From positions 1-64,000 of IMG/VR virus record IMGVR_UViG_3300034759_000344: 64,000 bases of DNA; one strand, written 5' to 3'. A program made the position numbers and the translations under genes. Below the pieces are notes generated by a model that worked only from the letters and a program-made list of their open reading frames with translations, was not told where the DNA came from and made no database searches. Of the stretch, positions 5,269 through 63,975 are shown in pieces; the first letter of the stretch is position 1, and every line of letters starts with the position of its first letter. Source of the DNA: a virus.

Positions 5269-5430
5269 TAAACTTGGGTAACACTAAAACAACATAAGAA
5301 GCTTAAACAAAGCAGTATATATCAGGCTGACGTTTCGTCAGCCAATGTACCAAAAGATCCTACCTGAAGCCTTCCTCGGGTGTGTGAACGCACACGTTCA
5401 CACGTTGGAGAAAGGACATACCCAAGTTTA
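5269..5430 (+). ncRNA. retron-like ncRNA unit 1 (closing IR, conserved core, variable hairpin)
   Basis: 12-bp perfect IR TAAACTTGGGTA (5269-5280) / TACCCAAGTTTA (5419-5430); core 5286-5343; variable hairpin GTGTGAACG-CACA-CGTTCACAC. Confidence 0.8.
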
Positions 5431-5441
5431 AAAGTATCCAG

Positions 5442-5590
5442 GTTTGGGTAACATTAACGCAAAAAACAACATAAGAAGCTTAAACAAAGCAGTATACATC
5501 AAGGGTGATGCTTCGTCAGCCGATGTATCAAAAGAACCTGCTAAAAGCAAGGTCTTGACCGCTGAGCCAGCGGTCAGTCCATACCCAAAC
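5442..5590 (+). ncRNA. retron-like ncRNA unit 2
   Basis: 9-bp IR GTTTGGGTA (5442-5450) / TACCCAAAC (5582-5590); core 5463-5521; variable hairpin TGACCGCTG-AGC-CAGCGGTCA. Confidence 0.8.
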
Positions 5591-5595
5591 GTAAA

Positions 5596-5767
5596 GCACA
5601 GGTAACGTAAAAACAACATAAGAAGCTTAAACAAAGCAGTATACATCAAGGCTGATGCTTCGTCAGCCGATGAGAGATAAGTAACATCCATTGGTAAAGA
5701 ATGTGCCAGGTCCTCGGACCGACCTTTGGGTCGTCCTGCGGTGGCGCATTCTTTAGCATACCTGTGC
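5596..5767 (+). ncRNA. retron-like ncRNA unit 3
   Basis: 9-bp IR GCACAGGTA (5596-5604) / TACCTGTGC (5759-5767); core 5610-5668; variable branched stem TAAAGAATGTGCCA...TGGCGCATTCTTTA. Confidence 0.8.
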
Positions 5768-5797: not shown

Positions 5798-6733
5798 ATG
5801 GGTAAATCATTTATAGATCCTAATAATCCTGGTAACTGGAACATCTTTAAGGTGAAGAAAAGAGGAGGTGGTTGGAGAATCATAGAAGAGCCTAAACCGG
5901 CATTAATGGAGCAGTATAAGAAACTGTTCGATGAACTGATGAGGAGCAATGTGATTAGAAACCGTTTGTTCTGTCCTTTTAGTCATGGATTTGTGCCGGG
6001 AAGAAGCATAGCAACTAATGCACAGCCGCATGTAGGTAAGAAGTATGTAGCAGCTATAGATATCAAAGACTTCTTTGGATCCATATCCGTAGATAAACTC
6101 TACGGTCTCTATCCTCAAGTCGGTACAGAAATAGCTGATATAGCAAGATCCATAGTCAAACGTCCGTATCTTGAACATGTAAAAGAAACGCTGACAAATA
6201 CTGTGTTTAAAACAAGAGAAAAAAATGGGGAGGTGGTAACTTATCTACCGCAGGGAGCACCAACTTCTCCCATCATAGCTAATTTGTATATGTCCAGGTT
6301 TGACTGGAAGTTTGGAATGACCTGTGCTAAACACGATATAGCTTACACCAGATATGCAGATAATATAACCATATCTGGAGATGATCCTCAAAAGCTGAGA
6401 GAAATGCTTAAGTATGGGTTAGGGCTCATTAAGCACGATATGCAGTTAAGAGTTAAGTATGTAAGAGTTATGCCTTACTGGAAAAAACAGAAAGTGTGTG
6501 GAGTGGTAGTTAACAGCAAGCTGAACGTAGACCGTGAATACCGAAGAAGAGTAAGAGCTATGCTGCATCAAATAAATCAGAAAAGCGAAGAAGAAAAGAG
6601 GAAAATACTGGGAATGGCAGCATATATCCACAGCGTCAGAAGACTAAACGAGGCAAATCCTGAAGACCTTCCCATCAGCAATGCAGAATACTACGCATTG
6701 AAGAGGGCTGAAAAAGCTCTTAATAAGATGTAG
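5798..6733 (+). CDS. retron-type reverse transcriptase (YADN variant)
   Basis: GGWRIIEEP, HGFVPGRS, retron region X NAQPH, IDIKDFFGSI, LPQGAPTSP, YTRYADNITISG, region Y-like KVCGVVVN; RT domain only, 311 aa; GGAGG RBS. Confidence 0.9.
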   Translation: MGKSFIDPNNPGNWNIFKVKKRGGGWRIIEEPKPALMEQYKKLFDELMRSNVIRNRLFCPFSHGFVPGRSIATNAQPHVGKKYVAAIDIKDFFGSISVDKLYGLYPQVGTEIADIARSIVKRPYLEHVKETLTNTVFKTREKNGEVVTYLPQGAPTSPIIANLYMSRFDWKFGMTCAKHDIAYTRYADNITISGDDPQKLREMLKYGLGLIKHDMQLRVKYVRVMPYWKKQKVCGVVVNSKLNVDREYRRRVRAMLHQINQKSEEEKRKILGMAAYIHSVRRLNEANPEDLPISNAEYYALKRAEKALNKM

Positions 6734-53242: not shown

Positions 53243-54724
53243 TTAAACCTTATTAAAGTATGGAGAACCGAGTTCTGCCTTGTAAGTATAGCCAGCACCA
53301 GAAATGGATACTTTTAATATTGTGGTAGCGTTGTGAGGTATCCCATAAATACACCCATTGGTAGCAAGAATGCCACCGTCCCACTTGTACAAATCGGTCA
53401 AACTTCCAAAGGTGGTTATTGAGTCATCAGATGGATTTATCTTAAGAACTGTGGTAGCGTTGCTAGGTATCCCATAAATACACCCATTGGTAGCAAGAAT
53501 GCCACCTTCCCACTTGTACGAACCGGTCAAACTTCCAAAGGTGGTTATTGAGTCATCAGATGGATTTATCTTAAGAACTGTGGTAGCGTTGAAAGGTATC
53601 CCGTAAATACATCCGTTGGTAGCAAGAATGCCACCTTCCCACTTGATTGAGTCACTACTCAAACTTCCAAAGGTGGTTATTGAGTCATCAGATGGATTTA
53701 TCTTAAGAACTGTGGTAGCGTTGTGAGGTATCCCGTAAATACATCCATTGGTAGCAAGAACGCCACCAAACCACTTGTACGAACCGGTCAAACTTCCAAA
53801 GGTGGTTATTGAGTCATCAGATGGATTTATCTTAAGAACTGTGGTAGCGTAGTGAGGTATCCCATAAATACATCCATTGGTAGCAAGAACGCCACCAAAC
53901 CACTTGTACGAACCGGTCAAACTTCCAAAGGTGGTTATTGAGTCATCAGATGGATTTATCTTAAGAACTGTGGTAGCGTTGTAAGGTATCCCGTAAATAC
54001 ATCCATTGGTAGCAAGAATGCCACCAGCCCACTTGATTGAGTCACTACTCAAACTTCCAAAGGTGGTTATTGAGTCATCAGATGGATTTATCTTAAGAAC
54101 TGTGGTAGCGTCGTGAGGTATCCCGTAAATACATCCATTGGTAGCAAGAACGCCACCAAACCACTTGTACGAACCGGTCAAACTTCCAAAGGTGGTTATT
54201 GAGTCGGTTGTGCTAACAGTAGTTACGTGCTCAAGTCCATAAAGAGCTGGTTTCCACGTCCAGAAATAGCTTAACAGGTAACCGTTTTGCGACAACACTT
54301 GCCGACCTACTGTGGAGTCGTGGATAACGGAAATGGCAGTATCGCTTTCTCGAATAATGCCCATTGCGTTGCTACTTTCGGCGATAATGCCCATTGCGTT
54401 GCTACTTTCGGCGATAATGCCCATTGCGTTGCTACTCTCGGCGATAATGCCCATTGCGTTGCTACTCTCGGCGATAATGCCCATTGCGTTGCTACTCTCG
54501 GCGATAATGCCCATTGCGTTGCTACTCTCGGCGATAACACTCATAGTTTGCAGCGTTTTATAAGGTTCAAAGCCTATGCCAATGACACCACGAAAATACC
54601 GCCCAGTAGTCTTGTAGGCATCTGTAAGGGCAAGAATGTCGCTCAGGTTGCCATATAGGCCTTCAACAAACGTATTTAATTTATACGTTCCACCGCCACG
54701 CCTAACAAGTGTCCCTTCGCCCAT
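53243..54724 (-). CDS. putative receptor-binding protein: 10-aa tandem repeats plus 7-bladed repeat domain
   Basis: (IIAESSNAMG)x~6; seven 42-43-aa repeats KW.GG.LATNGCIYGIP..ATTVLKINPSDDSITTFGSL. Confidence 0.85.
   Translation of the reverse strand: MGEGTLVRRGGGTYKLNTFVEGLYGNLSDILALTDAYKTTGRYFRGVIGIGFEPYKTLQTMSVIAESSNAMGIIAESSNAMGIIAESSNAMGIIAESSNAMGIIAESSNAMGIIAESSNAMGIIRESDTAISVIHDSTVGRQVLSQNGYLLSYFWTWKPALYGLEHVTTVSTTDSITTFGSLTGSYKWFGGVLATNGCIYGIPHDATTVLKINPSDDSITTFGSLSSDSIKWAGGILATNGCIYGIPYNATTVLKINPSDDSITTFGSLTGSYKWFGGVLATNGCIYGIPHYATTVLKINPSDDSITTFGSLTGSYKWFGGVLATNGCIYGIPHNATTVLKINPSDDSITTFGSLSSDSIKWEGGILATNGCIYGIPFNATTVLKINPSDDSITTFGSLTGSYKWEGGILATNGCIYGIPSNATTVLKINPSDDSITTFGSLTDLYKWDGGILATNGCIYGIPHNATTILKVSISGAGYTYKAELGSPYFNKV
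53320..54205 (-). repeat. seven near-identical 126/129-bp coding repeats
   Basis: visible DNA tandem repeat. Confidence 0.9.
54352..54537 (-). repeat. 30-bp tandem repeat (~6 copies)
   Basis: GCGATAATGCCCATTGCGTTGCTACTYTCG. Confidence 0.9.
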
Positions 54725-55306
54725 TTACTTCACCACCTTGGCCGTGAATGGCAAGTCTACGGTTGGCTTCTCTATAGCATAAAAGGTTATGCTATTTGTT
54801 CCAGTTACTGCCCTGTAAATGTAGCCCCATTCCTCATTTCTTATGCTGTCTGTTGCGTAGTTTCCACTCATCACGACATCGATAATTGGCTCATCATCAG
54901 CAGTAATTCCAGTAATTGAAACTGTTTGAGAATAAGGAGCAGCCGTTCCAGACCACCCAACAGCAGATAATGTTCCAGAGTAAGTGGCTACGGTGGCAAA
55001 GTCGGAAGCACTATACCCACTATCCTGTAAATTCCCCGTAGCGTCCAAAGAAGCAAGGTTGCCAGCAGTAGTGCCAGGAACCTTGTCGGCTTTATCATTA
55101 TGGGTATGTGATGCTGGTGCTGCTCCTACCTGTTCATAGGTAACCTGGTGAGGGTTATCAGTACGCAGCTCATGTGAGTTTATTTGCACCTGCAAACTGT
55201 GCAAAGTGCTGTCTATAATAGTAAAGTTGTTGTTTAATTTGTCGTCCCAGTAAGTTTCACCCTCAGAAGGAAGATATAAGTTGTAGTTAGGAGTGTAAGT
55301 AGCCAC
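54725..55306 (-). CDS. tail fibre protein
   Basis: YTPNYNLYLP N-terminus, DNPHQVT..QVGAAP motif shared with 59371-60468. Confidence 0.75.
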   Translation of the reverse strand: MATYTPNYNLYLPSEGETYWDDKLNNNFTIIDSTLHSLQVQINSHELRTDNPHQVTYEQVGAAPASHTHNDKADKVPGTTAGNLASLDATGNLQDSGYSASDFATVATYSGTLSAVGWSGTAAPYSQTVSITGITADDEPIIDVVMSGNYATDSIRNEEWGYIYRAVTGTNSITFYAIEKPTVDLPFTAKVVK

Positions 55307-55320
55307 CGACTATCCCCTCT

Positions 55321-55830
55321 TTAACTACAAGCTTGCTGGTACACTTCTTCAAAAGCTGAGTCCAGGAACTCCTCAGCATTTTGGGGAACTAAAACTCGTA
55401 GTGAAGTACCGCTGCTAGTATTTTTCAAAGACTCTATGGCTCGCAGTACGTTTATGCTTAACTGGGTAAGCAAACCCATAGTTGTGGTTAGTGTACTCTC
55501 GTTACTGATAATTGCTTGAGCAATTAGACGGGACATTACCAACTCGTTGAACAAGTTAGGTTCATCACTTTCTATTCCGCTTGCATCAACCAATTCTCCA
55601 AATTCTTCAGATTCCAGATAATCGTGGATTTCTTTAATGTGTTTATTGAAGCCTTCATTGAGGTGGTAGATACAGAATATATTTTTGAACAAGTAGTTGA
55701 GCTGGGCTAACTCGTCTCTGTTTAGCTGAAAAGCATTAGCTTTCTCAATTAAAGAATCTATGTGCCTATCATCGCAGTTTCCCATTAACCAATAGTAGGG
55801 TTTAAGCTCTTTACTGCTAATAGTCAACAC
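55321..55830 (-). CDS. hypothetical protein downstream of the rSAM pair
   Basis: 169-aa ORF starting 3 bp after rSAM 2. Confidence 0.6.
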   Translation of the reverse strand: MLTISSKELKPYYWLMGNCDDRHIDSLIEKANAFQLNRDELAQLNYLFKNIFCIYHLNEGFNKHIKEIHDYLESEEFGELVDASGIESDEPNLFNELVMSRLIAQAIISNESTLTTTMGLLTQLSINVLRAIESLKNTSSGTSLRVLVPQNAEEFLDSAFEEVYQQACS

Positions 55831-55833
55831 CAG

Positions 55834-56964
55834 TTACACCTCACATTTATTCCAAGGTAACTTTATACGCACTTCGTTTTGGTATCTCAAAAGCATTTTG
55901 CACACATCAGGTATGGGAATGGCTAAATCGCCCCAAAACTCAAGCTGTGCTCCCAAGCATCCTCCAGCACAGTACTCTTGGTTGATAGGGAATTTGCACT
56001 TATGACATATCAGATTGTTATTGCGGTGGAAGTAATAAAAGAACAGAAACTTATTGCAGTCCATGTTTTCTAAATCATGAATGCTTCCAATCTTTAAATC
56101 AGGGTATATTAAGCGGTGACAAGGATAAATACTTCCATCCCAAGCTACGGTAAGCTGGGTTTGAAAACTGCAGGTCAGCCCTCTTTTTACCATCCCTGGT
56201 GTGCGGAATAGGTTAAACTGAGTTTCTCCCAGATTGATGTTTTCTTTTTGTATATAATTAATACACTTCCAGCTTTCCTCTATAAGGGTGTTTATGCGGT
56301 CGTCGTGCCAGGTTCCTCCGTTCCTCACCTGGAGCAGGAATAAATCATCTCCTACTGGATGGTCCTTGCCTCGAACCAAGCGCACGTTATCTACAAAAAA
56401 CTTGAAAGTGTCAAACAAAGTATGCACAGTGGGAGCGTAGACCATAGGATGAAATCCACACAAATATCCTTCTCCATAAAGCTTAAAGAGGTTGTCGTAG
56501 TCAAGTTTTAAGTGTTTATACTCAGGGAGGCTGGGCCTCTGTTTTTCTTCCACATAAGGACCGTCAACTGAGAAGCTGAGGTTGAGCTTTCCGTACTTTT
56601 TATACAACCGCTTTATCTCTTCGGGATAGGTGGAGGCAACCCACCCGTTGTTGGGTATATTGACTAAAAATATCTGTGGGTCTTTAGCTGCTTTCTGAAG
56701 TACGTACTCAACCAAGTCTAACTGTAGAAGAGGTTCTCCACCGAACAAATCGATTTTAAACGGACGGTTTCGATACTGCTTTATCTTGGCTACAGCGGTA
56801 TCTATAGTTTCTATGCTCATTTTTGGAGACTTATTACCTTGATTGTGTCGGGGCATGTAGCAGTAGCGGCAGCGTAAGTTGCACTCTGGTGACAGTATTA
56901 ACTCTAAAGTCTGGAACAGTTGGTGATTTAGTAGTCTTTTAACATGCAGGAATAGTTCGTTCAA
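55834..56964 (-). CDS. radical SAM/SPASM-domain enzyme 2
   Basis: CNLRCRYC, FGGEPLL, SVDGP, C...DGSIYPCHR, CHKC...CAGGC...C. Confidence 0.9.
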   Translation of the reverse strand: MNELFLHVKRLLNHQLFQTLELILSPECNLRCRYCYMPRHNQGNKSPKMSIETIDTAVAKIKQYRNRPFKIDLFGGEPLLQLDLVEYVLQKAAKDPQIFLVNIPNNGWVASTYPEEIKRLYKKYGKLNLSFSVDGPYVEEKQRPSLPEYKHLKLDYDNLFKLYGEGYLCGFHPMVYAPTVHTLFDTFKFFVDNVRLVRGKDHPVGDDLFLLQVRNGGTWHDDRINTLIEESWKCINYIQKENINLGETQFNLFRTPGMVKRGLTCSFQTQLTVAWDGSIYPCHRLIYPDLKIGSIHDLENMDCNKFLFFYYFHRNNNLICHKCKFPINQEYCAGGCLGAQLEFWGDLAIPIPDVCKMLLRYQNEVRIKLPWNKCEV

Positions 56965-58084
56965 AATTGCTCTGCCCCCATTCTTTGTAGTGTTTGTAGA
57001 ACACTTTTACTATTTTGCAGAAATGAAAGTTTGGTGAGTAGTGAAGTCGGTTTAGATTGTGCATGTCCATAGGACATTGCCAGCACAAAAAGGGAAATTC
57101 TTGGTACACTTCACATTCTTGCTGTTTACAGAAAGCAGCTCTAATTAGGTCGTAGTTATATTTGAAATACACATTGCGGTAAACGGCTTTGGGATCCAGG
57201 TACTCTGCATAAACGTTCCCTAATTTGAAGTAGTCCTGCTTGGTGTTGTCTGTAGACGGTCCGTGGCAGTGGTAAATGCTTCCATCTAAATCAACACATA
57301 CTTGAGAATGACATGCTGAACAAACGTTGTTGGGCCTGTTGAAGTACACAAACCATCCCAGTTGTGCCTTTTCATTCTTTTCACAGTACTCTTTACAGCG
57401 GTAAAGGTCTTCATCAAGAGCTTGGGCAGCTTCTTCATCATAAACACTGTCTTTGACTAAGGTAACTGGAGACATAGGATGTTTTAGCTCTTCCCAAAAG
57501 AATTCGCAGGCTTTGTAGAAGTGCCCTTTTTTGACTTGTTCAGGACTTAAAGTGGACTTTATCATCAATTTACTGGTGAAATCTGGTATTTCTTTGGTCA
57601 TTATTTCGTAATGTTCCATAACTTTATGGAAAGACCCTTCTCCACCCGCTGTCTTTCTTGCGTAGTCGTGTACTTCTTGAGGTCCATCAAGGCTTAGCTG
57701 TATGCTTTCAATTTTGTCCCAGTGTTTTTTAACAAACTTGACATAACTTTCGGGAGTGGTAGTGGCATTGGTTGACCAGTTGGTGGTTACTGGACAGTCA
57801 GAGTAATTTTGGAATATGTAAGTAAGTACTTCTTCAATGGTATCCCATTGACATAGTGGTTCGGCACCCCACGGTATGATCTTGCACGGAGTGTTGGGTT
57901 TAAGTATGTTGGGAAAAACCTTTCTTATCGGCTCTAAAAGCGGAATAACTTCATTGGCTTTAATTTCTATTTGTTTGTAGGTAGCATCTCTGATATAGCA
58001 GTAAGAGCAGCGGAGATTACATTTTTTGGACATGGGAATTTCTATAACATAAATGCTTTTAAGAAATTTGGACAAGTCTACCAT
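56939..58084 (-). CDS. radical SAM/SPASM-domain enzyme 1
   Basis: CNLRCSYC, WGAEPL, SLDGP..VHD..R, CSAC...DGSIYHCH, C-terminal Cys cluster; GGAGG RBS before ATG 58084. Confidence 0.9.
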   Translation of the reverse strand: MVDLSKFLKSIYVIEIPMSKKCNLRCSYCYIRDATYKQIEIKANEVIPLLEPIRKVFPNILKPNTPCKIIPWGAEPLCQWDTIEEVLTYIFQNYSDCPVTTNWSTNATTTPESYVKFVKKHWDKIESIQLSLDGPQEVHDYARKTAGGEGSFHKVMEHYEIMTKEIPDFTSKLMIKSTLSPEQVKKGHFYKACEFFWEELKHPMSPVTLVKDSVYDEEAAQALDEDLYRCKEYCEKNEKAQLGWFVYFNRPNNVCSACHSQVCVDLDGSIYHCHGPSTDNTKQDYFKLGNVYAEYLDPKAVYRNVYFKYNYDLIRAAFCKQQECEVYQEFPFLCWQCPMDMHNLNRLHYSPNFHFCKIVKVFYKHYKEWGQSNFERTIPAC

Positions 58085-58379
58085 AAAATGCCTCCAATAC
58101 TGCCTCAAATGAAGGTAAGTAGCAAGGACCTTTTGCACTTACCGCATTGTTGGTACTGTTAACTCCATCTACACTACGTTGATGGTGGGCAGTAGAGTTC
58201 AAAGTGGAATAGCTCAAACTGTGCCCATCGTTACTGTATACTGCTTTGTTGTAGCTTGTGTAGTAAGAGCTGTTGTGAGTAGGACAGGCAGCTTCCAAGC
58301 TCTCTATAGCAGTCCTTAATTCAGAAATATGTACTTGTCTCACTTTTGTGGTATTAGTTATACTATCGGTCCAAGACAT
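58059..58379 (-). CDS. small structural/precursor-like protein B
   Basis: WTD...KVRQVHISELR N-domain, then CPTH and an S/Y/N/H-rich tail. Confidence 0.7.
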   Translation of the reverse strand: MSWTDSITNTTKVRQVHISELRTAIESLEAACPTHNSSYYTSYNKAVYSNDGHSLSYSTLNSTAHHQRSVDGVNSTNNAVSAKGPCYLPSFEAVLEAFYGRLVQIS

Positions 58380-58391
58380 GATTGCCTCCGT

Positions 58392-58778
58392 TTATACGTA
58401 GTGCACGCAGTTGCCACTACCCAAAGCATAGTTGTATTTAGCAGTTCCGTTTTCGCTTGAGTCGTGGCCGCTGTAGTTGGATCCGTAATCAATACTGTGA
58501 GCAGTTCCGTAGTTAGAACAGTAACCGTCGTAGCTTGAGTTATAGGAGCGTACGGTAGTATGGTGAGTACCACAGCCAACAGTTAGCGGGGTTCCATCAA
58601 CAGCAGAACGCAGGTCATTTATATGAGAAGCAAGAATTTTACTTTGCTCAGCAGTAATATTTATGGAAAGCTGGGAATACCCACGCTCACTACGCTCTGT
58701 GTTGAGCCTGGATACTATTTCGTCAATATGTATCTTTCTGATTTTAATATTGGTTAAATTAGTATCTGTCCAAGCCAT
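58392..58778 (-). CDS. small structural/precursor-like protein A
   Basis: WTD...KIRKIHIDE and KILASHINDLR motifs, then CGTH and a periodic Y/H tail. Confidence 0.75.
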   Translation of the reverse strand: MAWTDTNLTNIKIRKIHIDEIVSRLNTERSERGYSQLSINITAEQSKILASHINDLRSAVDGTPLTVGCGTHHTTVRSYNSSYDGYCSNYGTAHSIDYGSNYSGHDSSENGTAKYNYALGSGNCVHYV

Positions 58779-58781
58779 GGG

Positions 58782-59123
58782 TTAGTGGATTTGCCTAATG
58801 ACAATATCCAAATCACAAACTGGAATACCGAAGGTGAGGTTTATTTGGTCCAATAAGTAACCAGGTTCTGTGTTTCCTATAGTGTAAAAGCACTTGGTGT
58901 TGTAGTAGAGGTTCATCTCAATAGGCTTTTTAGCCACTTCGTTCAGCTGACTGGCAATGCGTACAGCATCTTCAGGAGACACGTTAATGCGTATGTGCAT
59001 TACATTTATTAAAGATCCGTCGCTGGCAATTTCTTTGTTCTGCATCATGGAAAGAAACCCTACTTCCTCAGCCAAAACTGTCTCAGTATTTTCTCTATCT
59101 ATGATTTCTATGGAATAGCCCAT
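58782..59123 (-). CDS. hypothetical protein
   Basis: GGAGG RBS. Confidence 0.65.
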   Translation of the reverse strand: MGYSIEIIDRENTETVLAEEVGFLSMMQNKEIASDGSLINVMHIRINVSPEDAVRIASQLNEVAKKPIEMNLYYNTKCFYTIGNTEPGYLLDQINLTFGIPVCDLDIVIRQIH

Positions 59124-59125
59124 AG

Positions 59126-59374
59126 TTACACCTCCATGGGAATCAAATACATTTCAGAGAGTTTATGGCAGGTATAGATACTTACGGTCTTCAAGTTAAT
59201 GAAGTATGTGTTGTTTTCCCACTCTACTTCCAGGTTGTATCCAGGGTTTACGTAGTTCATAATTGACTGCAGTACTGGAAAAGATCCTCTGATGCGAATT
59301 CTGTTTCCTGTAGGCAGCTCATCTACCCCGACATAATCTACTTCAAACTCTCTTCCATTTATTAAAATATTCAT
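59126..59374 (-). CDS. hypothetical protein
   Basis: coupled ORF. Confidence 0.6.
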   Translation of the reverse strand: MNILINGREFEVDYVGVDELPTGNRIRIRGSFPVLQSIMNYVNPGYNLEVEWENNTYFINLKTVSIYTCHKLSEMYLIPMEV

Positions 59375-60468
59375 CTTATCAACACCTTTATTTTCCTAAC
59401 TTCATGCCGTCCTACACTTTCCATAGCTTTAGCTACCACTTCTTGGTTGCGTTTGGCTTTTTTCAGCATCCCGTCTTTTCCTACAGTAAGTGGGTCTCCA
59501 GGTTTCACGCCTTTTTTACCACCATCCACTTTGGCATACACTTGACCTACTAAAGCTAAAGGAACTTTCTTGTGTTTTTGGTATTCTTCTTCCCAGTTAT
59601 GGGTCATACCTAAAAGCAGTCCTGGATGATAAGAAACTATACCTGCAAAGCTACCTCCATTTACTGCTTTCATAACCCTACCGTCATCTGTGAACACCAT
59701 TACTGTACCTTCTTCAGGCAGCCTAGGTTCTACAGTAATAAATCCTTCAGCAAGGTCGGAATTGTACACGGCTCCCACTAATCCGTAATCATTGACATAA
59801 GCTCTGGTAGTTCCTCCAGTCTGGAAATAGATAGTTTGCCCTGAAGGAACATTTATGCCAGTAGCTGAAGTGTTGCTTTTCCATACAAAGTCCTCAGCAT
59901 GTTTATTATCTACAGTATCGGCATTGTCAGCCTGCTCTACACTTCCATCACTATCTGGGTCATAGGTAGCTTTGGTCATCTCTCCAGCTACAGTGTAATT
60001 ACTGCCATCAGTTGAAAACTCAAGCAGGGAGCCGTTAACCCTGAAGTGGATGTTATCTACGGTATCTGAATTGTCAGCTTGTTCTACGCTTCCATCATCA
60101 TCAGGGTCATAAGCGGATTTAGTCATTTCCCCAGCTACAATGTAGTTGCGACCGTCAGTCGAAAATTCCAGCAGTCCAGCGCTGACTCTTAGGTGGACGT
60201 TGTCCACGGTATCAGCATTGGCAGCCTGAGGTACCTGACCGTAGATATCGCTACCTACATGCTGGTGCTGCGCAGGAGCAGCACCAGTTTGGTCATAGGT
60301 GACTTGATGGGGATTGTTAGTGTCATTTTTGTGAGCATTTAACAATCCAGTTAAGGAAGCTATAAGACTGTCTATAGTTTCCAAATTCCCGTTTATCTCA
60401 TCGTGCCAGTTTACGTCTCCTGGTGCTGGTAAAGCAAAATTGTAGTTCGGAGTGTAGCTGTTAGCCAT
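59371..60468 (-). CDS. tail fibre protein with internal repeats and peptidase G2/IMC-like C-terminal domain
   Basis: YTPNYNFALP, NPHQVT, repeated ADTVDN/YDPD.DGSVE, DLAE, VPLALVGQVYAKV. Confidence 0.75.
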   Translation of the reverse strand: MANSYTPNYNFALPAPGDVNWHDEINGNLETIDSLIASLTGLLNAHKNDTNNPHQVTYDQTGAAPAQHQHVGSDIYGQVPQAANADTVDNVHLRVSAGLLEFSTDGRNYIVAGEMTKSAYDPDDDGSVEQADNSDTVDNIHFRVNGSLLEFSTDGSNYTVAGEMTKATYDPDSDGSVEQADNADTVDNKHAEDFVWKSNTSATGINVPSGQTIYFQTGGTTRAYVNDYGLVGAVYNSDLAEGFITVEPRLPEEGTVMVFTDDGRVMKAVNGGSFAGIVSYHPGLLLGMTHNWEEEYQKHKKVPLALVGQVYAKVDGGKKGVKPGDPLTVGKDGMLKKAKRNQEVVAKAMESVGRHEVRKIKVLIR

Positions 60469-60480
60469 TTAGAACACTCC

Positions 60481-63400
60481 TTACCTAAGGAGTACTATCA
60501 AGTTGGTGCAAGCTGGTTGGTCAGTTACCTGTAGGGTATTCAAGTCCACTCTAACTTTAAGTGAAGTTGCTGGACTACCTAAAGTATGAGTGTACTTTCT
60601 GCGTTCCCAGTTGTAAGCTGGAGAACCCACTAAAGTCATATTGGTGAGCTCTGTCCAATTTTGTCCGTTATCAGTAGAAATGCTTACTGTAGCACTACAG
60701 TTGGTAGCTGATGGACGGTAAACATCACACCAAAGCTCTATGTTGGTAAACTCACCGTTGGAGATTATAGTTCTTGATACATAGGTTGCTGAAGTGTCTA
60801 ATTGGTACAAAGATATCAGTAATTTGTCCGCTACTACTGGGCTCAGCCTATCAGTATTGGATTCCATTTCCAACTTCAGTTTTATGGAAGTTGCCTGGAC
60901 TTTGGGAGTATCGTTTACCAGATTGTTAGCTAACGGATACCAGGTAGCTCCATTGTCAAAAGAATAGTAGAGTTTTATCTTAGTGTTTTCTGGAATGTAG
61001 GTGGTGAGCTGGGGCAGTACTTGGAGATAGTTGTAGTTAACGGTTTCGGTAACTATGGTGGCACTGCTTGCTGTAAACTGAGCTCGGTAGATTTTGAATT
61101 TAATATCCCAAGTTTGATGGTCTGCCCAGGCTAGGGCGTTGGACGAGGAGAACATCAGTCCTTGCAAGTAAGGCTGTCTGGATATGGGAGCTCCAGTTAG
61201 TAGGTCTGATTGTCCCATTTCAGCGTAGAACACTTCGTATGCAGTACTGTCGGAGGAAATTGTTATGCAGTAGTAGTTTTCTCCTAACAGCAGGATTGGT
61301 GAGTCAAAAGTTATTACCGTTTCTGCTGAGGAATCATCAGATACATTTATTTGGTCTGGTGTAACGGTTTTGCTGGCTATAATATCTTCTCCAGGATAAC
61401 CATTCACCACATTTCTTATTTGTACAGTTACTGGGATGTTATTACTGTCTTTCTTTTTGAAGTAGAGCCCTACTGAGGTTATGAAACAGGTATCTCCTAC
61501 GTAGAAAGTTTGAGCTACAGGATCTTTTCCGTTGTTGCAAGTTTTTTTGTTTGCAGCACTACCCAGGAATCCTCCAAAAATGGCTCCAAGCAAAGCTCCT
61601 ATTGGACCAGCTACCATTGCACCTATAGCTGCTCCTGTAGCTGCTCCAACTACAGTAGAAGCTGAACTTGAAGAGCTGGATGATGATGGCTTAGGGGTAC
61701 TTGTTGGTTGGTTGGTGGGTTGTGAAATAGCGCAGTTTTGAGATGGACGGGGAATGGGACAGGGAGGTGGTGTGTAGTTTGGAGCGCTCTGGTTGTAGAT
61801 GGTTCTTTCCACTTGATTAATCTTTACTCTTTCGTAGACGTCCCTTACGCCATTGGCATAGAAGTAAGTTTCTGCGCTTTGGTAGTCGTTTTTAACCTCT
61901 ATTTTCTTAAGTCCTGTTGTAAATTTGTTGGCAGGTAAGGTTACGGTCAGAGCAAAAGTGCCGTCGCTTTTGGATTTCACTGTTCCTACATCTGTTCCCA
62001 AAGGAGTACCTTCTATAGGAGTGGCTACTAAGTTTACTCCGTCAACGTAAACTTTCAGATTATCTTGGTCGGGATAGAAGTTAGATCCTCTAATGGTTAT
62101 GGTAGTGTCTTCAGGTATTAATTCTAGTGATTCCTGACGTAGCAGTCTGTTTTCAAACCAAGAGCTGATAATTCTATCAGATACTGAGTTTCTTGGATGG
62201 AAGCGGTCGTAACGAGCGTACTTGGTGTTTATAACTACTGTTTCTGTGGATTCATTGATGATCACATCGGAGTTGTATATCTTTTCGCTTGGATCTGTGC
62301 TTAAGAATGGTTCCCGCTCGAATAGAGCATACTGGTTAACTCGAATACTGGACGAAGCTTTTGGTTGTTCTATGTAAATCGTTTCTTCATAGGGAAGGAT
62401 GTAAGCGTTTTGTGTCTTTTGAGCTGTTGAAGATGCTACAGGTAAAGCTACATGATTTACTTCGGAGTAACCAGGAACAAAAGCTTGTAATTCAGGTACG
62501 ATAGCCCCGTTCCAGTTAGGATGGTAAATGTCTGCTTTGGTGTATCCCACACAACCCTCGGAGAACATACCCACTAAGTCGGTGGGTGAAGAGCCCAAGT
62601 TTACTGGGTCGTCGAGCTGAGATAAAGCTAAATTGTATTCAAGCATTTCCACTCTGCGAATTAGCTCGTGCAGTTCAGGCATTGATATGCGTTTCAAGTT
62701 GTAGTTAGTGACTTCTAATTGATTGGAGTTAGGTGGGAAATAGATTTCGCAGAGCGGTAGAGAAGTAGATGGTGGAATAGGTTTTTTGTTGAACCCAACG
62801 TCTGCTGGTTCGCCTTCTAAGCGTGTTATGTTACCGTCTTTATCCAAATAAAGAACATCGGTTCTGGCTAAGTAGTAGTCGTAGTCAACTTCAAAGTACG
62901 AACCGTCTACTATGTTATCTACGGTGGGTAGAAACTTGATAATGGTGTCTCCTTTGGTGTCGGTAGTTACTTGGTAATCGTTGCCTTCTCCAGGAACCAG
63001 TATTTTCTGGTAGATAAAAGTTACCGTGTAAGATGTTCCTGGATTAGGTTCTGCTCCTAGTGGAGACCAATCAATTATGTTCCCATTTACAATGTTGTAA
63101 TCTGTGCCTGCAGTATAAGTGGTAGTGTCTTGCTTAACTTCGATTACTTGCAGTACGTTGTTGAAGGGTATAGTATCTGCTCCACCGATGGTTGCACCGC
63201 GTACCATGTTGTAATCGGTTACCTGAACGTTGGCTCTTACTACGTTTACAGAGGCTACAGGTTGCTTGTAAAGAGCGTAGTCGGTAGTTCCCGATTGGTA
63301 GAGGTGCATCTCATCGGTTATTGATCTGGTGGAAGTGCAGGGATTCACCGTATTAATAACTGGAGAAGGAATGGAAACTTCATATCCTAAAACATAAGCT

Positions 63401-63975
63401 TTACCTGGAGCAGTAATCAAGTCCGCTTTACCATCTTCTCGAAGCAAAGCTGAAGTAGTCAACCCTCTTACCAGGTAGTTTTCGGATTCATCGTAAGTTC
63501 TGCGGGCTAAGATGTTTAAAATGGTGGAGTATTCGGTAGCCTGGCGGTGCTGAACTAATGCACCATCTTTAAGTTCGTACAGTTTGATGGTTGGGGTGGG
63601 ACTTAACACCACTTGGGTGGTAATTTTCAAGCGGTGGGCACCAGGTTTTCCGTAACCTCTTCCACCTGGATAGATGTCTCTCAAGTCAGGGTCTTCTTCT
63701 TCAGTGACTATCTCTTCAGTTATATCAACTCCAATTATTTCCGTACCAGTTCCCGTTATGCCTAAGACGGTTTCTGCTACGGGAACTATAAACCCGTTGT
63801 AGTAAACACTCCCTGAAGTAATGGTTACTGTATTTCCTTCTATAACAATCTGACATCCTTCTACTATAGCTCCCTCTTTAAACAGAATGTTGGCTAAGTC
63901 ACGAAGCTGGAGCTGTACTAAGTGCTGTAGTTGGGAAAGTTCACGGGCTTGTATGTAACGTCCAGGTACTGCCAA
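60481..63975 (-). CDS. baseplate/tail protein (DUF4815-like); probably extends beyond the window
   Basis: PGRYIQAREL, PGAHRLK, LARRTYDES.NY, GKAYVLGYE, DPVAQTF. Confidence 0.85.
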   Translation of the reverse strand: MAVPGRYIQARELSQLQHLVQLQLRDLANILFKEGAIVEGCQIVIEGNTVTITSGSVYYNGFIVPVAETVLGITGTGTEIIGVDITEEIVTEEEDPDLRDIYPGGRGYGKPGAHRLKITTQVVLSPTPTIKLYELKDGALVQHRQATEYSTILNILARRTYDESENYLVRGLTTSALLREDGKADLITAPGKAYVLGYEVSIPSPVINTVNPCTSTRSITDEMHLYQSGTTDYALYKQPVASVNVVRANVQVTDYNMVRGATIGGADTIPFNNVLQVIEVKQDTTTYTAGTDYNIVNGNIIDWSPLGAEPNPGTSYTVTFIYQKILVPGEGNDYQVTTDTKGDTIIKFLPTVDNIVDGSYFEVDYDYYLARTDVLYLDKDGNITRLEGEPADVGFNKKPIPPSTSLPLCEIYFPPNSNQLEVTNYNLKRISMPELHELIRRVEMLEYNLALSQLDDPVNLGSSPTDLVGMFSEGCVGYTKADIYHPNWNGAIVPELQAFVPGYSEVNHVALPVASSTAQKTQNAYILPYEETIYIEQPKASSSIRVNQYALFEREPFLSTDPSEKIYNSDVIINESTETVVINTKYARYDRFHPRNSVSDRIISSWFENRLLRQESLELIPEDTTITIRGSNFYPDQDNLKVYVDGVNLVATPIEGTPLGTDVGTVKSKSDGTFALTVTLPANKFTTGLKKIEVKNDYQSAETYFYANGVRDVYERVKINQVERTIYNQSAPNYTPPPCPIPRPSQNCAISQPTNQPTSTPKPSSSSSSSSASTVVGAATGAAIGAMVAGPIGALLGAIFGGFLGSAANKKTCNNGKDPVAQTFYVGDTCFITSVGLYFKKKDSNNIPVTVQIRNVVNGYPGEDIIASKTVTPDQINVSDDSSAETVITFDSPILLLGENYYCITISSDSTAYEVFYAEMGQSDLLTGAPISRQPYLQGLMFSSSNALAWADHQTWDIKFKIYRAQFTASSATIVTETVNYNYLQVLPQLTTYIPENTKIKLYYSFDNGATWYPLANNLVNDTPKVQATSIKLKLEMESNTDRLSPVVADKLLISLYQLDTSATYVSRTIISNGEFTNIELWCDVYRPSATNCSATVSISTDNGQNWTELTNMTLVGSPAYNWERRKYTHTLGSPATSLKVRVDLNTLQVTDQPACTNLIVLLR

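Follow-up and report, generated by a model that had tools for sequence, protein, structure and literature searches.

Two small paralogous proteins encoded among the tail fibre genes of an uncultured subsurface phage, here called A and B, are quite probably, to judge from gene linkage and sequence features, acted on by two radical S-adenosylmethionine (rSAM) enzymes of the SPASM type, rSAM1 and rSAM2, encoded directly after them. The genes lie in positions 1 to 64,000 of the IMG/VR virus record IMGVR_UViG_3300034759_000344, a stretch of 64,000 nucleotides (hereafter the window) that forms part of a 96-kb record with a completeness of 63% per CheckV. We further propose, as a reading that we hold to be evenly balanced between right and wrong, that the products of these dedicated enzymes remain uncleaved and work with the phage tail. 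Such a product is favoured over an exported peptide because the N-terminal part of A and B is autonomous and also occurs in ordinary secreted proteins, because neither a protease nor an exporter is detectable, and because the cassette stays in the tail modules of unrelated phage types. A preliminary description of this DNA had placed a pair of small proteins and two SPASM-type rSAM enzymes between two related fibre genes in the tail module; every one of these elements is present, all on the minus strand. The flanking fibre genes (TF1 and TF2, both phrog_8147) have N-termini that are 54% identical over the first 67 residues (E 3e-23), and they agree, together with a neighbouring protein of predicted tail-tube fold, with the placement in a tail module.

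The two radical SAM enzymes

Both enzymes pass the cut-off of the Pfam Radical_SAM model PF04055 (29.5 bits), rSAM1 with 42.5 bits and rSAM2 with 54.7 bits. The SPASM feature is supported in rSAM2 by a model, TIGR04085 (37.3 bits against a cut-off of 27), with PF13186 slightly under its own cut-off (20.8 versus 21.5), and in rSAM1 by motif only, no SPASM model of Pfam or NCBIfam matching the latter above cut-off. When rSAM1 is aligned with 13 homologues, the CxxxCxxC motif (C22, C26, C29) and seven further cysteines are invariant, those in the C-terminal half including C-x12-G-x4-C; by motif, this set would suffice for two auxiliary clusters. With their catalytic cysteine sets intact, both enzymes look active.

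Identity between the two enzymes is only 24%, and their top NCBIfam matches are all peptide or protein maturases, namely PapB, CcpM, nif11 maturase, anSME, DynA, YhhB, SCIFF and QhpD, in line with the maturase character first read from the sequence. Among solved structures, those of anSME, CteB and ChlB are nearest in sequence, with anSME 4k36 (E 4e-13) the best for rSAM1 and CteB 5wgg among the matches of both enzymes. The individual scores lie far under the curated cut-offs: 101.7 bits (rSAM1) and 97.2 bits (rSAM2) versus 340 for the PapB ranthipeptide model NF047865, and 67.1 and 51.6 versus 349 for the anSME model TIGR03942. For the models of three-residue cyclophane enzymes, rSAM1 reaches 57.7 of 445 bits (NF041707, YhhB), 48.7 of 310 (TIGR04261, GrrM/OscB) and 32.1 of 370 (TIGR04269, FxsB), and rSAM2 reaches 36.1 bits with NF041707. 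To judge by these matches, rSAM1 and rSAM2 belong to the peptide- and protein-modifying rSAM/SPASM group but to no curated family within it, and sequence therefore cannot give their chemistry.

In rSAM1 the CxxxCxxC motif occupies residues 22-29 and in rSAM2 it starts at residue 28, which leaves no room for an N-terminal recognition element (RRE) of the kind found in enzymes that make peptides which are ribosomally synthesized and then post-translationally modified (RiPPs). No RRE, N-terminal or stand-alone and PqqD-like, is detectable: the 82-aa and 169-aa open reading frames (ORFs) of the operon have no matches, and the 113-aa neighbour of A, checked as a stand-alone candidate, has a tube fold and not a winged helix. 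Among GenBank phages the relatives of rSAM1 are only about 22% identical and are Campylobacter CP220-type enzymes. More distant relatives in the databases (P0014-P0022) show 27-32% identity and are 130-150 residues longer; one of them carries the annotation of a Patescibacteria genome, a hint of where the hosts of this enzyme lineage may lie.

Proteins A and B and their hypervariable tails

The preliminary description had regarded the two small proteins as paralogues with a common N-domain followed by C-x-T-H, and this holds in both respects. The single K-V-R-x-x-H-I-x-E-L-R motif of B aligns to two sites in A (E 4e-6 and 2e-5), and a single-repeat hidden Markov model (HMM) finds two repeats in A and one in B. 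The repeats end in a junction with a conserved cysteine, G-C-G-T-H in A and A-C-P-T-H in B, and are followed by tails of 60-75 residues. The A tail (60 aa) is rich in Tyr, Ser, Asn and Gly and ends in G-N-C-V-H-Y-V, and the B tail is variable, rich in Tyr and Ser, and has a conserved K-G-P-C-Y close to its end. A second, distal cysteine is thereby conserved, in G-N-C in A and in K-G-P-C-Y in B and its homologues. Between these cysteines the tails are hypervariable: pairs of homologues are 49-66% identical in the N-terminal part and 26-39% in the tail, and in the two loci L004 and L005 the corresponding values are 91% and 37%. Each tail holds 2-4 cysteines and no motif of the C-x3-D/E type, neither A nor B contains C/S-x-P/A-x-R, and the A tail is without Pro.

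The composition of the pooled family tails (19% Ser, 15% Tyr, 9% Thr, 8% Asn) is accompanied by a distinct local order. Relative to shuffles of the same tails, Y-x-[ST], comparable to the core motif of triceptide precursors, is enriched with a z of 5.8 and [ST]-x-Y with a z of 7.3, and Ser or Thr stands at +2 after 50 of the 112 aromatic residues. The spacing of aromatics at every third to fourth position, as originally perceived, survives in one half: i/i+4 pairs are enriched (z 2.6), whereas i/i+3 pairs are depleted (z -2.2). Neither gene contains DNA tandem repeats, and neither protein matches a PHROG family.

A diversity-generating retroelement was considered as the source of the tail variation and rejected, the repeat pair beside the reverse transcriptase gene of the window being local (5277-5672) and matching neither A nor B. 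The reverse transcriptase gene itself (5798-6733; RVT_1, 73 bits), with its upstream repeats (5277-5525 and 5463-5672, 74-89% identical), resembles such an element whose target would be a neighbouring gene, at its 3' end, and not the cassette.

The WTD domain is a widespread three-repeat family

The repeats of A and B belong to an unnamed family that we define here by a profile of two repeat units and call WTD. Its repeat spans 38 residues with the pattern W-T-D-x8-10-K-I-R-x-x-H-I-x-E-L-R and usually occurs in three tandem copies. With an E limit of 1e-3 the profile recovers 4748 cluster representatives, of which 2448 also pass a limit of 1e-10; A matches it with an E of 2.3e-29 and B with 1e-9, and no Pfam or NCBIfam model covers the family. 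Three tandem repeats are evident by pattern in 104 of the 150 best representatives, the third being often degenerate in the rest. In 101 of these 150 the domain forms the very C-terminal end of a protein 100-2000 aa long, frequently with a signal peptide and beta-propeller-like repeats ahead of it, and in about 20 it lies N-terminal to Cys-rich regions. The nearest forms come from metagenome-assembled genomes (MAGs) of Patescibacteria, Omnitrophota and Planctomycetales. At eight loci (L006, L007, L009, L010, L017 and L024-L026) the proteins end in three near-perfect WTD repeats behind propeller-like W-R-I-E-K-R repeats; the owners of such C-terminal triplets are Patescibacteria (Wolfebacteria, Nomurabacteria) and others, and the proteins are large and secreted.

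An AlphaFold2 model of a three-repeat member (predicted local distance difference test, pLDDT, 82.7; predicted template modelling score, pTM, 0.76) takes the form of a three-helix pseudo-trimer, in which each repeat is predicted to contribute an extended stretch and a helix, giving three main helices per domain. Foldseek found no match to this fold in the PDB and only weak rows of uncharacterised proteins in BFVD; the best rows from the aligner VIA were a designed filament at Z 7.4, three-repeat BARA at 6.8 and 6.1, and SLH at 3.9, none of which rises above the noise of helical bundles. The N-domain had been proposed to be either a leader or an anchor. Because it is widespread and folds independently, a part that the product keeps, as anchor or as recognition handle, is preferred to a cleaved leader, and the notion of a leader private to this cassette is to be dropped.

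In the window the repeats are divided two to one between A and B, and the same 2+1 division is seen in the homologues from L003 and L004. A locus of another type, L014, does not plainly fit the sum of three, with one strong and one weak repeat in an ORF cut at the contig end. Since three repeats are the norm and A and B together have 2+1, their joining was tested by complex prediction. The pair A(1-72) and B(1-38) obtained 'weak support', with an ipSAE of 0.45 versus 0.05 for the best control, a score class that is more often wrong than right in the absence of a strong prior: among the reference pairs, 58 of the 80 solved complexes and 2 of the 110 mismatched ones attain the mark applied, and values of 0.60 or under account for only 7 of those 80 complexes and for both mismatches. 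Contact agreement between runs was at least 90% and partner pLDDT at least 66. It is plausible, going by these models, that the repeats of A and B jointly form one domain.

The cassette is conserved in diverse phage tail modules

A metagenome scan with the alignment of A and B yielded three close loci, L003, L004 and L005. L004 preserves the full order of fibre, 108-aa protein, A, B, rSAM1, rSAM2, 169-aa protein and fibre, with identities to the window ranging from 35% (B) to 56% (rSAM2), and L003 keeps the order up to the start of rSAM2, where the contig ends. The L005 contig breaks off within an IS200/IS605 element located where its A gene ends, which makes the presence of rSAM genes unreadable and rules the locus out as a case of a cassette that lacks them. 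The element (L005, 1500-3121) encodes a TnpA of 143 aa and a TnpB of 379 aa. The database homologues of A (P0002-P0004) are each a singleton on one contig; by their matching source and size, three contigs (7142, 3461 and 5122 nt) probably each hold both an A homologue and an rSAM1 homologue. Neither the DNA nor protein A has a match among GenBank phages, and viral scans with the A1 query alone or the rSAM1 query alone returned nothing.

A scan of viral sequences with the WTD profile extended the association well beyond these relatives. It retrieved 22 IMG/VR contigs, each encoding a protein with an N-terminal WTD domain and a Cys-rich tail, and one to three rSAM/SPASM genes come directly after the WTD gene in all 17 contigs that continue downstream, the other five ending too early to be judged. 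The same succession recurs in L008, in L014, where two small motif-bearing proteins with Cys-rich ends come after the rSAM gene, and in five loci from Omnitrophota and Planctomycetales MAGs that represent prophages. The rSAM genes and small proteins whose conservation the preliminary description had proposed to check are kept together in L003 and L004, and among the related contigs both small proteins and the rSAM enzymes occur together wherever this can be judged; the wider pairing of a WTD-domain protein with an rSAM gene holds in 17 of 17 informative viral contigs.

In the lineages examined, the cassette stands behind baseplate or fibre genes. In the type represented by L008 and L022 and in the MAG prophages it directly follows a J-like tail protein of 1206 aa and a fibre protein of 176 aa, while in the more distant L050 it comes after a baseplate wedge gene (phrog_219) and further tail genes. 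L051 and L052 are additional variants, the latter with a tail of 481 aa and the C-D-x-D type. Fibre types differ among L004, L022, L050 and L052. Across these diverged cassettes the constant partners are the WTD domain with its variable tail and the rSAM/SPASM enzyme, and the constant address is the fibre/baseplate operon. In L052 (4681-8287) a tyrosine integrase is encoded two genes upstream of the cassette, beside a fibre-like C-terminal module (phrog_5417), and this region is possibly a fibre segment that can invert or move.

The immediate upstream neighbour of A gives further detail on the structural surroundings. Its AlphaFold2 model (pLDDT 88.6, pTM 0.79) matches the baseplate chain 9b45_S of phage Pa193 (E 9.6e-4) and T4 5iv5_BE (TMq 0.59) by Foldseek, and with VIA it reaches a Z of 9.0, the top rows being almost all tube, hub or Hcp proteins. 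The two independent aligners thus agree on a likeness to tail-tube, Hcp and baseplate-hub proteins, and the protein is predicted to be structural; an Atlas search was without usable result. A collinear counterpart of 108 aa is present in L004 and L005. The tube/Hcp fold occurs here among fibre genes and not among tube genes.

Comparison with known maturases and adhesins

Cross-linking by rSAM/SPASM enzymes is known from secreted peptide natural products and a few enzyme subunits. Triceptide precursors, in particular, have cores with repeated aromatic-X-X motifs, each of which loses 2 Da on modification. The triceptide systems (XyeB/YhhB, GrrM/OscB, FxsB, ChlB, MicB) resemble the present cassette in that an rSAM/SPASM gene stands beside a precursor with many aromatic-X-X motifs in its C-terminal part; the tails described here are enriched in Y/H-x-S/T, and ChlB is among the PDB sequence matches. 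They differ in that the present enzymes score far under every family cut-off, that the presumed precursors are proteins of 106-149 aa with a folded repeat domain in place of short peptides, and that two enzymes are combined with two substrates in a phage tail operon that has no protease. His-x-Ser and Tyr-x-Lys are proven cyclophane sites (PMC12912966).

The thioether-forming SPASM maturases (PapB, CteB/SCIFF, QhpD) include the top HMM hit, PapB at about 100 bits, and a PDB match shared by both enzymes, and the two bracket cysteines kept by A and B recall their substrates. QhpD/QhpC additionally offer a precedent for a stapled small protein that stays a subunit of a larger assembly. On the other hand, the curated cut-offs of 340, 425 and 453 bits are missed, the 2-4 cysteines of each tail do not form a motif of the C-x3-D type, and CteB-type enzymes possess the N-terminal RRE for which rSAM1 has no space. 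A third comparison is with anSME, likewise a SPASM enzyme without RRE, which modifies Ser or Cys of a full-length protein and is the top structural match of rSAM1; the tails considered here are Ser-rich. Unlike its substrates, A and B have no C/S-x-P/A-x-R, and the scores stay well short of the anSME model.

On the side of the product, the gp38 adhesin of T4-type phages is a separate small protein at the tip of the long tail fibre, encoded beside the fibre gene. Its N-terminal part serves attachment, and its C-terminal part alternates conserved scaffolding with hypervariable, aromatic-rich segments that contact the receptor. A and B are comparable by functional analogy, as small separate proteins encoded beside a fibre with an attachment-like N-terminal part and a hypervariable, aromatic-rich C-terminal part. 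The analogy is not one of homology: gp38 has no sequence relation to A or B and is stabilised by polyglycine helices and not by enzyme-made cross-links, and the attachment of A and B to a fibre is putative.

A proposed mechanism and its alternatives

We propose that the two WTD repeats of A and the one of B would assemble into a single three-helix pseudo-trimeric domain, as suggested by the three-repeat relatives and the complex score. Given that both enzymes lack an RRE, this domain would serve as their recognition handle, an idea to which the gene linkage also points. The enzymes would then introduce covalent links into the Cys-bracketed, Tyr/Ser-rich, low-complexity tails, the candidates being aromatic-to-C-beta cyclophanes at Y/H-x-S/T, thioethers from the two bracket cysteines, or both. 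Three-residue cyclophanes are one option that the Y/H-x-S/T enrichment would suit, and thioethers would fit the two bracket cysteines and the best HMM and PDB matches, PapB and CteB. The two dissimilar enzymes could perform one reaction each or take one substrate each, and epimerisation or Ser oxidation of the tails may occur instead. Finally, the stapled A/B unit would sit on or near the fibre or baseplate as an adhesin or fibre cap, as its gene position in several unrelated phage lineages implies, with the hypervariable tail facing the host; by analogy, such Tyr/Ser-rich tails beside fibres suggest a role in host contact. A bolder elaboration, which we regard as doubtful, is that the pseudo-threefold domain built from two chains docks on a trimeric fibre or baseplate while doubling as the RRE-independent handle, and that the enzymes rigidify a receptor-contacting tail akin to the complementarity-determining regions of an antibody.

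Several observations weigh against this mechanism, beyond the score class of the predicted complex. No curated rSAM family cut-off is reached by either enzyme, with about 30-100 bits where 300-850 are called for. The enrichment of Y-x-[ST] is carried by the homologues, being weak and not significant in A and B of the window alone (z 1.3-1.5), and the S/T-x-Y alternation could be mere beta-strand propensity. The closest relatives of the cassette amount to only about six contigs. Further, in most WTD members the domain closes a secreted bacterial protein at its C-terminus and an rSAM gene is absent from the vicinity (e.g. L012), so that the domain is not intrinsically an rSAM handle.

The layout of a conserved N-terminal part, a hypervariable C-terminal part and adjoining rSAM/SPASM maturases is also that of leader and core in a classical diffusible RiPP. 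The WTD part would then be removed by a host protease or one that escaped detection, and the modified tail would be released at lysis, which could replace an exporter, as a bacteriocin-like, signalling or anti-competitor molecule; all characterised triceptides are indeed cleaved ahead of the first cyclophane motif (PMC12912966). We consider this unlikely. In agreement with the preliminary description, no protease, exporter or transporter is detectable by Pfam, PHROGs and NCBIfam in the 11 cassette genes, nor in or near related cassettes of any type, and the usual hallmark of a RiPP, a leader removed by a protease and a core that is exported, is thus not seen, although a host protease is possible. 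Moreover, the 'leader' would be a folded repeat domain of 70-110 residues that folds by itself and also occurs in ordinary secreted proteins, the cores would be long (44-92 aa), and the position in a fibre/baseplate operon is kept in both sipho-like and myo-like lineages.

Two further alternatives assign the chemistry or the WTD domain differently. The resemblance of the RRE-less enzymes to anSME, a modifier of whole proteins, and the clearly structural nature of the 113-aa neighbour would allow the rSAM enzymes to act on TF1, TF2 or the 493-aa protein downstream, leaving A and B as unmodified structural or assembly proteins, for instance fibre chaperones or proteins with low-complexity adhesive tails. 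This is quite unlikely in view of the constant pairing of the rSAM genes with WTD-tail proteins while fibre types vary (L004, L022, L050, L052), and of the Cys-rich tails, typical of rSAM substrates, on the WTD proteins of other cassettes. Alternatively, WTD might bind the host cell surface, making A and B free or tail-bound envelope binders whose tail modification serves stability alone, e.g. epimerisation against proteases. The nearest forms, located C-terminally, like wall-anchoring SLH repeats, in large proteins that Patescibacteria, Omnitrophota and Planctomycetales secrete, and the middling fold matches to SLH (Z 3.9) and three-repeat BARA (Z 6.1-6.8) speak for this, but those matches lie in helical-bundle noise, the domain has no known ligand or anchoring function, and the consistently N-terminal position of the phage forms before a variable tail is not explained, such that we give it little credence. 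A tail-associated, uncleaved product of rSAM1 and rSAM2 is the reading that we retain.

Genomic context

From 63975 down to 53243 the window contains eleven minus-strand genes with gaps of a few bases or overlaps between neighbours (Table 1) and no promoter-like or terminator-like site above the level of shuffled sequence inside the run. Their order is the 1164-aa protein, TF1, 82-aa ORF, 113-aa protein, A, B, rSAM1, rSAM2, 169-aa protein, TF2 and 493-aa protein; a PAAR protein and an endolysin are encoded farther downstream. rSAM1 most likely starts at the ATG of position 58084, which a GGAGG precedes, rather than at the GTG of 58138, and its gene shares 26 nt with the 3' end of B. Sequencing runs of subsurface and soil samples from a single study contain nearly identical DNA, and an anaerobic digester run contains fragments, its contigs leaving A and B uncovered, a gap that carries no weight as evidence; no RNA run is among those listed.

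Table 1. Genes of the tail operon that contains the cassette, in order of transcription
Feature	Position	Strand	Features and assignment
1164-aa virion protein, first of operon	60481..63975	-	phrog_877 over full length, E 6.5e-248
TF1, 365-aa tail fibre	59371..60468	-	phrog_8147 tail fibre
82-aa ORF	59126..59374	-	start overlaps TF1 stop
113-aa protein, predicted structural	58782..59123	-	tail-tube/Hcp-type fold by predicted structure
Protein A, 128 aa	58392..58778	-	two WTD repeats (residues 1-68), junction Cys, 60-aa tail
Protein B, 106 aa	58059..58379	-	one WTD repeat (residues 1-31), C-P-T-H junction; GGAGG ribosome-binding site
rSAM1	56939..58084	-	PF04055; seven-Cys SPASM-like C-terminal half
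rSAM2	55834..56964	-	PF04055; TIGR04085 SPASM
169-aa accessory protein	55321..55830	-	45% identical homologue at same position in L004
TF2, 193-aa fibre protein	54725..55306	-	phrog_8147; N-terminus common with TF1
493-aa repeat protein after TF2	53243..54724	-	phrog_7809 tail fibre, E 4.8e-14

As phrog_877 is a family without assigned function, the 1164-aa protein is placed in the baseplate or tail by context only. TF1, whose homologues lie upstream of A also in L003, L004 and L005, shows weak chaperone-like or cement-like matches at its C-terminus (Peptidase_G2 IMC, E 0.004; Phage_cement, E 2.8e-5; both sub-cut-off), and its gene contains a 147-bp tandem duplication at 59906-60228 (2.2 copies, 76% identity) that encodes two A-D-T-V-D-N...F-S-T-D-G segments. 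The 82-aa ORF has no family match in Pfam, PHROGs or NCBIfam, and L004 shows no equivalent of it. Conservation of the 169-aa protein is confined to L004, with no family in the same three collections, no Atlas or database relative and no fold detectable; an equivalence to the accessory protein of 126-135 aa in the L008/L022 type was ruled out, the sequences being unrelated. The gene of the 493-aa protein, which is probably the distal part of a second fibre, combines six perfect 30-bp repeats (G-I-I-A-E-S-S-N-A-M) with about seven 129-bp blade repeats of 91% identity.

Implications

Full-text searches of the literature brought up no article on the WTD repeat or on phage tail modules that encode radical SAM enzymes, and none on rSAM/SPASM chemistry acting on a structural or host-recognition protein of a virus. 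New here are the Tyr/Ser-rich, Cys-poor tails, the WTD three-repeat family with its predicted fold, the division of this domain over two substrate genes, and the link of N-terminal WTD domains to rSAM genes in every informative viral contig. The cassette is a compact system of two substrates and two enzymes that is directly testable in E. coli. If the proposal is correct, tails of about 45-90 residues, rich in Tyr and Ser and carried on folded proteins, would constitute a new type of rSAM substrate, and the WTD domain, whose family counts thousands of proteins from Patescibacteria, Omnitrophota and their relatives, would be its recognition module. The domain would then represent a new and widespread class of retained 'leader' for radical SAM chemistry at the level of proteins, by which phages could harden or diversify their receptor-binding surfaces.

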